This document shows, one piece after another, positions 17,558 through 55,730 of a stretch of DNA of 64,000 nt (the stretch's first letter is position 1; the number at the start of each line of letters is the position of its first letter). The stretch covers positions 27,156,001 through 27,220,000 of the forward strand of contig OZ024757.1 in assembly GCA_964016885.1 (NCBI GenBank), given 5' to 3'. The DNA comes from Eledone cirrhosa (lineage: Eukaryota). The translations under genes were made by a program, and so were the position numbers. Under the pieces are notes generated by a model. It was not told the origin of the DNA. It searched no databases and saw nothing but the letters and a program-made list of their open reading frames with translations.

Positions 17558-18325
17558 CATTCGGTAGGTCATGGGTTGATGATAATATGAATTTTTTATA
17601 GCTATACTATATCAAACTACAGCTTACCATATTATACACTCTCTCACTCTGTCCACGTTTACACCATTCCACATTGCCACCACATCCCCCAACCTCTCTA
17701 AATGCCACACCACCACTCCATACCACTGTTAATCTACAATAGTTCTACACCATTCTGAATGAATAATCAACCATAGCTAATCTGCTTCAGCACTCTGTTA
17801 TCTCCAAAGTTTAGCCAGTTAAACTAATCCTCTCTCTCCATGGAAGATCTATGAACAATCACCTAAGTACAGATGTACAGATACAGGCATGGCTGTGTGG
17901 TTAAGAGGTTTGCTTTGAAACCATGTGGTTTCAGGTTCAGTCCTACTGCGTGGCACCTTGACTCTTTTGTTATCATAGTTCTAAAAAAAAAACCCATTGA
18001 ATGTCATATGTCTGTTAGGAGGTGCTACAAGAGAGATATATAAAGAGACAAGTAGACACACAGAGTGGTAGACATAGAGAGAGAGGTTGACAGGCAGACA
18101 AATAGACTGATTGCCAGGTAGAGAGACAGACAAGTAGAGACTGTATAAAGAGAGAAAGCGATATATATATATATCATTATTCTTATACTATTATACTATG
18201 CTCTGCGTGAGCATTGAGTGCTCACCTGGCATACCGCCTACAGGCGCAATTTTCTTGCATCTATACACCTATATATATATATACGATATATTAACAAATG
18301 GAAACTATATTTATAAAACCATATT

Positions 18326-18390
18326 TATTTCATTATACATATTTCAAGAATACCAAAGCAAATTATGGTGCGCTTTCATCAGAAAAAATA
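18326..18390 (-). ncRNA. Minimal type I hammerhead ribozyme motif, left arm of fold-back
   Basis: tatttttt-CTGATGA-aagcgcacca..tggtattctt-GAAA-t-atgt-a-TA-atgaaata. Confidence 0.65.
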
Positions 18391-18557
18391 TAATATAGAT
18401 CAGTTTTATAAACAAATATTGACATACCCTTAAAGAATGCGATCATGTCGGTTGGAAGCTCCCGGATAGTCATACAACTTGTCATACAACTTCCAACCGA
18501 CATGGTCGCATTCTTTAAGGGTATGTCAATATTTGTTTATAAAACTTATCTATATTA

Positions 18558-18622
18558 TATTTTATCTGATGAAAGCACACCATAATTTGCTTTGGTGTCC
18601 TTGAAATATGTATAATGAAATA
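18558..18622 (+). ncRNA. Minimal type I hammerhead ribozyme motif, right arm of fold-back
   Basis: tattttat-CTGATGA-aagcacacca..tggtgtcctt-GAAA-t-atgt-a-TA-atgaaata. Confidence 0.72.
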
Positions 18623-18919
18623 AATATGGTTTTATAAATATAGTTTCCATTTGTTAATATATTGTATTTTTACTCCAATAATTTGTTGAGTGCTTTATAT
18701 CAGTTATAAAAATATTTGCTTGTTGTATCCCAACAAATTAAATATAACTTCTACATATATATATATGTAGAAGTTGTATTTAATTTGTTGGAATTCCGAC
18801 AAACATAAATGTTTATAACTGATATAGAGCACTCAACAAGTTACTGGAGCAAATATTCCAAGATATTAATAAATGGAAACTATATTTATAAAACCATATT
18901 TATTTTATTATATATATTT

Positions 18920-18965
<46 letters not shown>

Positions 18966-19405: not shown

Positions 19406-20670
19406 CATACAGAGAGAGAGAGAGAGGGAGGGAGAGGTGGATATAGCTAGAGATAGATAGCTAAATAGATAGATAGCTAGCAATGGCTGGTTAACACACT
19501 AGCAACCAAATACTTAAGAAAACTTCATGGAGATTATTATTTTTTTTCCATCTTTTAAACGTTTTTTGTAGTAGTTCTGTAAAATAGACAAGAAGAAACA
19601 CATCAATACATACACACACCAATACATACACATACACACACCAATACATACACATACACACATGCACACAACAATATACACACACACACAACAATACATA
19701 GACACACACACGCCAATACACAGACATATCAATACATACACCAATACACACACAGACATACCAATACACACACAGACACACCAATACGCACACACACAGA
19801 CATACCAATACACCGAAAACAAAGCAATAAAAGAATATTCTAGAACAATGTTTTAGAAGAGGTGAGTGGATGGGGGAAGTGGTGATGTGGGGGAGGGGAC
19901 GGGGGAGACGGGATACAACAACAACAACAATAATAACTAAAAATAACAGCAATATCAACAACAATAATAACAATAACATGGACAAGAACAACAGCAATAA
20001 AAACAACTACAACTAGAACAACAACAACAACAACAGCAATAACAAGAATAACATGGACAAGAACAGCAATAGCAACAACAACATCTCTAAATAGAGATAT
20101 GAAATGTCATCATGACTGCCACATATTACATAACATCAGCATCATCATCAGCAACATTTTCTTGTGAGACTACTTGTTGATGTGTTTGTATGTGTACGTA
20201 CACATATACAAACACAAACACACACAAACACACCCATACAAACACAAACACGCCCATACAAACACAAACACACACATACAAACACAAACACACCCATACA
20301 AACACAAACACACACATACATACACAAACACACCCATACAAACACACACATACAAACACAAACACACACATACATACACAAACACACACATATACAGGTT
20401 GAGCCCGAATCATTTCAAAATATAATACCTCTTTTATTCATTATAAAAAATTAATTGTAAAAAAAAAAGTTACAATATTTTAAAACCGTCTAGTGGCTTT
20501 TGGGTGAAGCCGGTGTTTGGAACATAACTTAACAAAGGATCTCTCATGAAATCATGATGGAAGGGTTCTAGATAAATATATATATATATTTATGGAAGAT
20601 GGACGTTATGATGATGTTGATGATATATATATTTTTTTATCTAGAACCCTTCCATATATATACATATATA

Positions 20671-20855
20671 TGAAAAAATTCTGGACCTCAACGGCTGAGC
20701 TCCAGTCTTTTCAACAGTTCGGACCTAGCTGTTGAAACAGCCTGAGCTCAGCTGTCGGGAGTCCTGAATTTTTTCATATTACCCACTCTACTATTCTAAG
20801 TATCGAGTACTCTGGTGAATAATGATCTAACTGGTTTTTACCACACCCTATCTGA
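20671..20855 (+). mobile_element. Hairpin-headed element, diverged copy
   Basis: Imperfect inverted repeat 20671-20776 plus the shared tail. Confidence 0.6.
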
Positions 20856-21157
20856 TATATATATATATATATATATAGTAATAATAATAAATTTGAAGAC
20901 TAAAATCCAAAGAGGGCTCGATAAGGATAAATATATATCAAATATATAAGAATCTTAGAGCAAATAAACGATTCTTTGCTTAAACTTTAATCTGTTATTT
21001 TAATAAATATATATATATATCTGTATCTGGTTGATGGCTGAGAGAAGGAGTACTCAATACCAAAGTCTAGTGACTCAGTGATAAGCAGGTGAAACTACAG
21101 AGTAATAAGACTCACTTTTTAGCCTTAATAATGTTGAATATAAATATATATATATAT

Positions 21158-26741: not shown

Positions 26742-27074
26742 CACCATCATTTCATTTTACGTCCGCTTTTCCCTGCTTGCAAGGGTGGGACGGGAACTGA
26801 TTCTGGCTTGATTTCTACAGCAGGATGCCCTTCCTAACACCAACCTCATTTACAGTGAGTGCTGGGTGCTTTTTTGCCGTAGCACCTCCACGACCACTTT
26901 GCAGTGGAATGATATGGACCCCAGTCCCTATCATCTCATTTCTACAGCTGAGTAAACTGGAGCAATGTGAAATAAAGTGTCTTGCTCAAGGAAACAACAC
27001 ATCACCCGGTCTGAGAATTGAACTCACAACCTTTCGATTGCAAGGCCAATGCTCTAACCACTAAGCCATGTGCC
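26742..27074 (-). mobile_element. Meta-like SINE
   Basis: Near-identical to the reverse complement of 55395-55730. Confidence 0.8.
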
Positions 27075-27097
27075 TATATATATATATATATATATAT

Positions 27098-27293
27098 AAC
27101 GAAGGAAATGTGGTAAGGAGCCAGGTGGACCATAACGCACCAAAGTACTCAATACTTAGGGTAGTAGAGTGGGTAATAGGAACGAGTAGGACCCCGACGG
27201 CTAAGCTCAAGCCGTTTCGACGGCTAATTCTGGACTCAGAATTAGCCGTCGAAACGGCTTGAGCTTAGCCGTCGGGGTCCTACTCGTTCCTAT
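27098..27293 (-). mobile_element. Short hairpin-headed element (fold-back half-hammerhead plus ~80-nt tail)
   Basis: Perfect 57-bp inverted repeat (27176-27232/27237-27293). Conserved tail tacccactctactaccctaagtattgagtac...ccttcgtta. Embedded in (TA)n. Confidence 0.7.
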
Positions 27294-27392
27294 ATATATA
27301 TATATATATATATATGCCTGTGTGTATCTGGAATGTGTGTGTGCATGTAGGTGCATATGTTAATGTTTGTGTTTGAATGGGTGTCTATGAGA

Positions 27393-37626: not shown

Positions 37627-37814
37627 AAAAGAGTCAGGACCCCGACGGCTGAGCTCCGGCTGTTTCAACAGCTAGGTTCAGACCTAGCTGTTGAAACGGT
37701 CGGAGCTCAGCCGTCGGGGTCCTGACTCTTTTCTTATTACCCATTCTACTACCCAGCATCCAGTACTTTGGTGTGTTATGATCTAACTGATTACTTACCA
37801 CACTTCCTTCGTTA
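37627..37814 (+). mobile_element. Hairpin-headed element, same family
   Basis: Inverted repeat 37627-37732 plus the shared tail. A further fragment lies at 37828-37890. Confidence 0.7.
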
Positions 37815-38122
37815 TATATATATATATCAGTTCGGATCTAGCTATTGAAACGGCAGGAGCTCAGCCATTGGGGTCCCGAATTTTTCATATATATATTTTG
37901 TCATACATTTGGTGGGCCATGCAGCCAATAAAACCACACACACACACACATACACATACCAGTTGAGCATCACATTGGTTTTATTATTAGTCAAGTAATT
38001 AATCCATACTTCACTCTTAGTTTAGTAACCTGACGGTTATTGGCAGCATGGCCCTCCCAATGTATAGCAATATCTGCTTCAACATACATCAAGAATCTTG
38101 CACAGAAAATACAAAAACAAAG

Positions 38123-42393: not shown

Positions 42394-42623
42394 AGAACTG
42401 AATAAACTATATCATCATCATCAACATTTTACATCTGCTTCCCATGTTGGCATAGGTTGGACAGGTTCTCATGGTGGGAGCCAGTTCTTATTCAAAACTA
42501 CTACCCTCCCTCCTTTCCTAGAAGAGTTGAGAGATCACTTCATGCTCATATGTTACAATTTTGGAATGGTTTCTATGGCCAGATGCCCCTCTTAAGACTA
42601 ACCACTTTGCAGACTGGCGCTTT

Positions 42624-42755
42624 AGTTCGGATCTAGATGTTGAAATAGCTGGAGCTCAGCTGTCGAGGTCCTGATTCTTTTCATATTACCCACTCTGCTA
42701 CCCCAAGTATAGAGTACTCTGGTGGGTTATGGTTTTTTACCACATCCTATCTGAT
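42624..42755 (+). mobile_element. Hairpin-family element lacking the left arm
   Basis: gttcggatctagatgttgaaatagctggagctcagctgtcgaggtcctga followed by the shared tail. Confidence 0.55.
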
Positions 42756-48134: not shown

Positions 48135-48325
48135 ATAGGAAAATGTTTAACCCCGACAGCAGAGCTCAAGCCGTTTCGACGGCTATTTCTGGAGATAGCT
48201 GTCGAAACGGCTTGAGCTCTGCCGTCAGGGTTAAACATTTTCCTATCACCCACTCTACTACCCTAAGTATTGAGTACTCTGGTGCGTTATGGTCCATCTG
48301 GTTCCTTACCACCCCTCCTTCGTTA
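48135..48325 (+). mobile_element. Hairpin-headed element, same family
   Basis: Inverted repeat 48135-48246 plus the shared tail. Confidence 0.7.
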
Positions 48326-54916: not shown

Positions 54917-55354
54917 TCATCATCACCGTTTTATGTCCGTCCTTCCATGCTAGCATGGGTTAGATGGGCTGTCCTTTTGTGGGCAGTGCCCAGTCGGCTG
55001 ACCTTGTCTTGCTCATACAGGAACTGATTCTGGCTTGATTTCTACAGCTGGATGCCCCCCCTAACACCAACCTCATTTACAGCGAGTGCTGGGTGCTTTT
55101 TTTTCTGTGGCGCCTACACGACCACTTTACAGTGTGGCCTGGGTGCTTTTTTTTTACCGTGGCACCTCCACGACCACTTTGCAGTGGAATGATAGGGACC
55201 TCAGTCCTATCATCTCATTTCCACAGCTGAGTAAACTGGAGCAATGTGAAGTAAAGTGTCTTGCTCAAGGAAACAACACATCACCCGGTCCGAGAATTGA
55301 ACTCAACAACTTTCGATTGCAAGCCCAATGCTCTAATCACTAAGCCATGCACCT
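54917..55354 (-). mobile_element. Meta-like SINE, head-to-head with the 55395 copy
   Basis: Reverse-complement match, with an internal duplication. Confidence 0.8.
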
Positions 55355-55394
55355 ATATATAATGGAGGCACTAAGCCATGCACCTATATATAAT

Positions 55395-55730
55395 GGAGGC
55401 ACATGGCTTAGTGGTTAGAGCATTGGCCTTGCAATCGAAAGGTTGTGAGTTCAATTCTCAGACCGGGTGGTGTGTTGTTTCCTTGAGCAAGACACTTTAT
55501 TACACATTGCTCCAGTTTACTCAGCTGTAGAAATGAGATGATAGGGAGTGGGGTCCCTATCATTCCACTGCAAAGTGGTCGTGGAGGTGCCACGGAAAAA
55601 AAGCACCCAGCGCTCACTGTAAATGAGGTTGGTGTTAGGAAGGGCATCCAGCTGTAGAAATCAAGCCAGCATCAGTTCCCGTCCCACCCTTGCAAGCAGG
55701 GAAAAAGCGGACGTAAAATGAAATGATGAT
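55395..55730 (+). mobile_element. tRNA-derived SINE with Meta-like core and RTE-type tail
   Basis: A-box tggcttagtggttag, B-box gagttcaattc, core ccttgagcaagacacttta..gctccagtttactcagctg, tail cccttgcaagcagggaaaaagcggacgtaaaatga. Confidence 0.8.

Follow-up and report, generated by a model that had tools for sequence, protein, structure and literature searches.

What process generates a perfect hairpin that carries half a hammerhead ribozyme on each arm and lies within (TA)n repeats? The question is raised by 27098..27293 of the window, the 64,000-nt stretch of Eledone cirrhosa DNA analysed here (GCA_964016885.1, contig OZ024757.1, forward strand 27,156,001 to 27,220,000). This 196-nt feature is a head-to-head hairpin with exact 57-bp arms, 27176-27232 and 27237-27293, around a 4-nt centre. 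(TA)n abuts both of its ends, and a 78-nt tail stands on one side only (Table 1). The + strand 3' arm reads TAGCCGTC GAAAC GGCT TGAGCTT AGCC GTC GGGGTCC, and the 5' half of the hammerhead core is absent, an inverted arm standing in its place. An earlier reading of the letters alone (the sequence-only reading) had described this palindrome with its half hammerhead, the antisense copy in place of the CUGAUGA half and a conserved tail of about 80 nt within (TA)n, and on these points it was accurate. The tail contains the first of two bulged hairpins (ACTC-stem-loop-GAGT), and in full-length units it runs on into a leader and an ORF. The GCTAAGC/GCTTAGC of the window copy is a private variant of GCTGAGC/GCTCAGC and was found in both arms at two loci only. 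A head-to-head pair of a tRNA-like SINE lies at 26760-27075 and 55206-55545, with weak Rfam tRNA matches at 27011 and 55404, and the hairpin directly adjoins another copy.

Table 1. Parts of the hairpin and its relatives in the window (positions are those of the 64,000-nt stretch; arm positions such as -18 count from the G of GAAAC as 0; PLE, Penelope-like element)
Feature	Position	Strand
(TA)n target, left	27076..27097	.
PLE tail, 78 nt, between two putative RT start sites	27098..27175	-
Tailed arm: stem II 3' strand from A at -18, GAAAC, stem III, GTC cleavage triplet, stem I 3' strand	27176..27236	-
Junction C: putative cap copy after tailed-arm -18, or first base (-14) of tail-less arm; 1-nt overlap	27237..27237	+
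Tail-less arm, -14 to CCTAT	27237..27293	+
Tail-less arm, stem II 3' strand	27237-27250	+
Tail-less arm, GAAAC	27251-27255	+
Tail-less arm, stem III	27256-27270	+
Tail-less arm, GTC	27271-27273	+
Tail-less arm, stem I strand	from 27274	+
(TA)n target, right	27294..27316	.
Two-armed copy, older subfamily, tail on right	20668..20856	+
Two-armed copy, older subfamily	37627..37813	+
Tail-less arm alone, begins AGTT (-18)	37828..37890	+
Tailed arm alone, into older parent's stem II to about -29	42613..42755	+
Two-armed copy, third subfamily	48135..48324	+

The hairpin is not a product of chance, since an exact 19-mer of the arm followed by W 61 nt on occurred 34,739 times in the 3.0-Gb genome, as compared with no occurrence of the reversed control. 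Similarly, a 16-mer across the tail junction, with a W filter, was found 24,474 times genome-wide and its reversed control not at all. A genome search with the 196-mer gave 3,015 candidates; the 40 that were scored were all full length and 97-100% identical to the query, and (TA)n surrounded all 30 loci that were fetched. The five relatives in the window have the two-armed and one-armed layouts that had been claimed for them. Their central stems do differ, as had also been noted, and they belong to different subfamilies of one parent.

Full-length parents were found. At one such locus (L133) an upstream pseudo-LTR (pLTR) with hammerhead and tail is followed by a leader, a 719-aa ORF, a 3' UTR and a second hammerhead ending in CCTAT-(AT)n, and an inverted tailed copy precedes the element. 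The pLTR or tandem layout, an inverted 5'-truncated copy and a tail at one end were seen at L133, L131, L135, L136 and L293. Tandem arrays have a unit of 3,543 nt, 98-100% identity and intact ORFs of 717-719 aa. Over 139 nt, the tail plus tailed arm of the hairpin agreed with parents L084, L204 and L226 at 136 positions and with L133 at 132. A structural model of the ORF, built with 111 homologs, had a pLDDT of 92.6; its top Foldseek match was TERT 3du5 (E 3.5e-8), with 9swn also among the top fold matches. A telomerase-like RT thus lies in a single 719-aa ORF, a character of EN+ PLEs. Pfam and PDB sequence searches with the ORF and with its profile gave no match. A VIYQC...AYIGLT motif was recognized by eye at the C-terminus, and a homolog (P0001) matched PF01541 at E 1e-5. 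We conclude that the parent of the hairpin is almost certainly a young PLE, a new family of a known kind. The linked RT ORF and the PLE pLTR origin proposed in the sequence-only reading were thereby borne out: the half hammerhead in the hairpin arm comes from the pLTR and corresponds to the 3' half of its type I motif. A TIR DNA transposon was rejected, the ends being different from each other, lacking terminal inverted repeats and coinciding with the 3' ends of an RT-encoding element.

Those 3' ends are two in number and fixed, 78 nt apart, and an inverted tail-less arm accompanies 66 of the 86 short copies. Contigs of four coded runs aligned to L133 have the same two 3' ends, such contigs giving no starts, strand or level. 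Head-to-tail arrays of two to four full 3.54-kb units, 98-100% identical, were seen in L291-L298. One end of some of them bears a short arm in inverted orientation, and the arrays are compatible with circular or multimeric templates. At L292:5171-8742 a 55-nt piece of the ORF is repeated in tandem about 65 times, at the turn between the two arms of the insertion. Further PLE families, whose RT and endonuclease motifs are likewise of Hydra type, are situated nearby or nested (L086, L132, L085, L138).

The parent ribozyme has the form ACCCC - (U/C)UGAN(A/G)A - G, a stem II of 54-56 nt, C - GAAAC - stem III with a GAGCTC loop - GUC - GGGGU, stem III being 5 bp and stem I ACCCC/GGGGT. Positions 3 and 8, compared across 54 distinct intact motifs that a core pattern had selected, were U-A in 31, a C-A mismatch in 11, C-G in 7 and U-G in 3 or 4, with 12 motifs counted as unpaired there; the commonest core was UUGANAA (U3-A8), a core published for Schistosoma PLEs (PMC4209133, in part). 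The core, the 3-8 pair and stems I-III, 88-93% paired, are those of a type I hammerhead. In a 55-row alignment of these motifs 88.8% of cells are paired, and in 40 of them both partners have changed, a value reached by none of 500 shuffles and inflated by the relatedness of the motifs. The minimum free energy structure of the L133 motif is the three-way type I fold; that of L084 is misfolded, and folding z-scores were weak (-0.6 to -1.6). Neither the window nor any of four parent loci gave a hammerhead match in Rfam. When CTGANGA was sought no more than 30 nt from GAAAC, the genome had 42 matches; no parent was among the 20 inspected, which were junction fillers or chimeras with other hammerhead families. 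Widening the gap to 31-60 nt yielded 38 rows, six of which shared one upstream sequence leading into a PLE 3' UTR and ORF. The narrower search had missed the parent because the commonest core is UUGANAA and stem II is about 55 nt long. The expectation of parent copies with a CUGANGA half therefore held in that full-hammerhead parents exist, but not in the letters of the core or of stem I. An intact older-subfamily hammerhead with a UUGAUAA core lies at L053:9177-9289, about 27 kb before the window start.

By its motifs the parent appears to belong to the Hydra clade, which is marked by RWK, DKT, a CxCX5C linker, CxxC, CxH, the lack of CCHH and (TA)n targets (PMC8557442, in part). In the L133 translation RWR, HSDKT, CNCPDRSIC, CNLC and CKH, and no CCHH, were recognized by eye. 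Like the C-terminal EN+ PLEs of that clade as described in parts of the same source (Hydra-1_Obim, Penelope-13_HM), which share RWR with it, the parent has a single ORF with RT and then a candidate GIY-YIG-like end, a hammerhead near the 3' end, an inverted 5'-truncated copy, a one-sided tail and a (TA)n target. It departs from two tendencies of the clade that are not diagnostic motifs: at 3,543 nt it exceeds the listed families, which reach about 3 kb and are generally shorter, and its hammerhead is not canonical, the U3-A8 core with a stem II of about 55 nt being unlike the listed Hydra motifs, including that of Hydra-1_Obim. Its tail is 78 nt as compared with the 30-40 described (PMC8557442). 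A further difference from the Hydra PLEs of that source is that copies truncated at one point of stem II number in the tens of thousands in this family.

The position of that point was determined in 98 tail-anchored copies, which comprise 99 of the first 100 tail-junction rows with two identical ones merged, all from the first 25 Mb of contig C1. Their 5' ends fell at +37..+20 in 13 copies, at +19..+1 in 6 and at 0..-10 in 8, while 12 copies ran on. Tailed arms ended at -11..-22 in 51 of the 71 that reached this interval, at -23..-35 in 7 of 20 and at -36..-92 in 1 of 13 (at -53). The claim that the symmetry centre always falls at stem II is thus too strong: ends do cluster there (66/98 at 0..-35), but 19 of the 98 lie downstream of GAAAC, besides the one at -53 and those that run on. 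Tail-less arms ended at -11..-22 in 37 of 66 cases; despite starts 78 nt apart, the two kinds of arm thus share one stopping place on the template. The most frequent end, the A of TTAGTC at -18, presumably resembles an initiator. In the older subfamily the stop was exactly at this A in 1,107 arms, as compared with 186 arms reaching -21.

Bases added beyond the stop were also examined. Genome-wide, the cDNA-sense base after -18 was C in 6,300 arms and T in 1,041 (the template base being A, and only C and T being counted), a C count that would mix any cap-derived C with C from the partner arm, to which 5 of 17 distinct local cases could belong. Among junctions with fillers, the first filler base was C in 9 of 13 at -18 and in 17 of 54 elsewhere (p 0.024, a small test). 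Untemplated G at 5' ends has been taken as cap copying in L1 and SVA (PMC4859970, in part). Runs of A or T of 8-20 nt were observed where arms end at the TTT of -19..-21 (L166, L203, L212, L224), which suggests slippage at a template end. Six short template-jump products stop at -3..-21. A unit-length capped mRNA would predict upstream pLTR ends at -11..-35, but none of 18 loci (15 independent) with at least 1.6 kb of ORF downstream had one; for long copies a different template is thus required, be it read-through, multimer or circle. Template jumps from -21..-7 or +23 to about +185..+236, around the start codon, were seen in L262, L263, L266, L268, L279, L285, L286, L287 and L290, and L263 repeats a 257-nt unit; these jumps and the repeat suggest short RNAs or a protein footprint ending there.

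The two arms were compared in the 66 two-armed copies, a difference being counted at 3 nt or more. The tail-less arm was longer in 21 and the tailed arm in 20, and in L133, L136 and L293 the tail-less arm was longer by kilobases. The unpaired centre was 0-2 nt in 23 of the 66; junctions were blunt in 16, overlapping in 23 and filled in 27. Later central deletions could blur both the arm-length and the centre comparison. Both arms were of the same subfamily in 44 of 46 labelled pairs (from 56 with both arms at least 24 nt), where 14% was expected, and arm 5' ends were correlated (rho 0.48). This agreement indicates that the arms come from one RNA or one source. Arms of differing subfamily were nevertheless found in L176, L204 and L019/L020, and tail-less arms were also found alone (37828 in the window; L065). 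Each of the two 3' ends sits a few bases before a similar bulged hairpin.

Taken from sequence comparison, the most probable account is that the hairpin is a short head-to-head PLE insertion, which turns in stem II where the capped RNA starts and joins two target-primed cDNAs. The RT-endonuclease would cut both strands of (TA)n, and each cut end would prime cDNA at one or the other start site, a short way down the same RNA or sister RNAs. RNA polymerase II would start at the A of TTAGTC or TTAGTT (-18), with a minor start near -22, leaving the first hammerhead of each transcript without its UGA half. Both cDNAs would run to the RNA 5' end, over about 60 and 140 nt, often with a C added opposite the cap, and end joining would unite them with minor trimming and filling. 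The long copies and tandem arrays would stem from longer or circular templates; circles have been proposed before (PMC4209133, in part). A purified PLE protein nicks and extends both strands in vitro, with two internal starts bounding the tail (PMC11167929, in part).

The sequence-only reading had instead attributed the palindrome to snap-back at the stem II hairpin. In such a model a single cDNA would end near stem II, prime itself and be copied back to CCTAT, central deletions then shaping the loop; the stop may even so be the RNA start. The shared subfamily and correlated ends of the arms are as expected from this, as is the finding that both arms start at +23 in 9 of 14 loci ending there with a partner, and PLE palindromes at inverted junctions have been read as self-priming in print (PMC3846280). 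Snap-back of a tail-primed cDNA requires, however, that the tail-less arm be no longer than the tailed arm and that a loop of at least 3 nt remain. Neither requirement is consistent with the near-equal numbers of longer arms of each type, the excess of kilobases at three loci or the centres of 0-2 nt, and two target-primed cDNAs joined end to end fit these figures better. Solitary tail-less arms, arms of unlike subfamily and a tail-less end that precedes the same kind of hairpin as the tailed end argue further against self-priming. We consider it unlikely as the cause of the palindrome, and the stop in stem II is better explained by an RNA 5' end.

A stop at this point could also arise if an intact hammerhead, with its long stem II still to be unwound, stalled the RT, a processive minority passing through. 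Stops do lie within the stem II 3' strand and drop off past its loop, and long copies that pass show no upstream stop, as a processive subpopulation would. Yet the peak at -12..-21 lies beyond the strongest, G-C-rich covarying helix (-1..-11), the edge is sharp at one A common to subfamilies with unlike distal stems, an untemplated C follows -18, and arrays traverse three or four hammerheads in a row; stalling is accordingly improbable, and less credible to us than self-priming. Least credible of all is a separate non-autonomous SINE- or MITE-like hairpin amplified as a unit from master copies, and the stereotyped non-autonomous element of about 190 bp proposed in the sequence-only reading is not supported. 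The uniform matches to the 196-mer, mostly with the same loop, and one junction frequent in the older subfamily speak for such a unit, but those matches were chosen for likeness to the query, and the frequent junction occurs in both orientations to the tail. Of 77 unselected copies 73 had distinct junctions, by which a retrozyme, SINE or MITE family with a fixed master or with full-hammerhead monomers was also rejected. A master traced through the private variant of the window failed likewise, the only two loci carrying it having different junctions, and a unit without terminal inverted repeats whose ends are the 3' ends of its RT-encoding parent is not what amplification from a master predicts. 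This explanation is largely refuted, and we retain, as the most probable account, the joining of two target-primed cDNAs at a putative capped RNA start.

A minor class of arms ended at +23, immediately after the predicted ribozyme cut. Tailed arms without the next template base were sought by a pattern, which had 581 genome matches; true stops at +23 were found in 21 of 30 fetched loci and, by eye, in 54 of 100 rows. Ends exactly at the cut account for about 4-5% of arms, a figure that the W filter in the search pattern inflates, as compared with a nearby background of 0.46% per nt. Five jump junctions in L279, L286, L287 and L290 also lie at +22/+23. These ends suggest that ribozyme-cut RNA is used as template, RNAs already cut giving arms that stop at +23, and hence that the hammerhead may cut in the living animal. 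A further reading, which we regard as speculative and rather unlikely, has the promoter inside the ribozyme, so that the RNA opens with the entire 3' strand of the proximal stem II; the length of stem II would then allow a 3'-UTR UGA half, from the same or another transcript, to pair again with this capped half and cut it at +23. Cleavage would then act as a switch, uncut RNA giving palindromes and RNA cut at both ends giving circles and so arrays. Co-folding of the UGA half with the capped half gained about -12 kcal/mol and beat 196 of 200 shuffles. If that switch operates, both hammerhead cleavage in vivo and the two-ended priming of a PLE would be recorded in the genome.

Several of these traits are already published: truncated copies in inverted orientation, a tail on one side, insertion into (TA)n, pLTR hammerheads and the U3-A8 core. 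In the Anolis Poseidon PLE PAc (PMC11167929, in part) the target is AT-rich, as here, and, as is proposed here, two internal starts near the pLTR-ORF junction bound the tail and both target strands are nicked and extended. There, no reads end at the ribozyme cut and cleavage is dispensable, whereas here a few per cent of genomic arms end at the cut, and most, unlike those of PAc, end at the putative capped start inside stem II. Schistosoma Cercyon min-HHRs, as partly described (PMC4209133), likewise have the U3-A8 variant, a long helix II, a short helix I, a palindromic loop III and close pairs of motifs on opposite strands; in this family stem III is 5 bp with the GAGCTC loop, stem II greatly exceeds theirs in length and the pairs on opposite strands comprise the 3' half only. 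In L1 twin priming and cap copying (PMC11702581, PMC4859970, both in part) RT, as is proposed here, extends both target ends, which are joined by microhomology or fillers, and an untemplated G is found at the capped 5' end. The second L1 primer copies RNA upstream of the first (PMC11702581), in contrast to the present arms, both of which duplicate the same stretch from fixed starts.

Within the literature consulted, which included few subscription papers and part of the Craig supplement, we found no start site inside a retroelement hammerhead and no genomic ends at a PLE cut; an earlier description of either may exist. In the portions available of each source, the role of PLE hammerheads is called unclear (PMC8557442), they are said to be without in vivo evidence (PMC4209133) and to be dispensable in vitro (PMC11167929), while how inverted PLE ends arise is left open (PMC3846280, PMC8557442). 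What would be unusual here is a start that splits a ribozyme and a readable record of RNA ends. The family offers tens of thousands of independent insertion records together with intact young ORFs, and three sharply placed predictions: a capped start at -18, a cut at +23 and two start sites 78 nt apart. It also accounts for short hairpin repeats, a large class that might be catalogued under MITEs or SINEs; neither ribozymes nor palindromes are mentioned in the available portion of the repeat annotation published for one cephalopod (PMC13282606).

Other hammerhead-like features were observed in the window and at loci of the family. At 18276-18920 another family has the same layout, with 183-nt arms that are 95% complementary, CTGATGA near the outer ends, (TA)n surroundings and a one-sided extension that reaches about 18920. 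The segment 7713-7760, CTGATGAG...CGAAA followed by TACATATA, is a possible minimal hammerhead. In L031, L047, L038 and L039 (about 1300-1530) an arm of the family is fused, head to head or via microhomology, to the ends of other hammerhead families.
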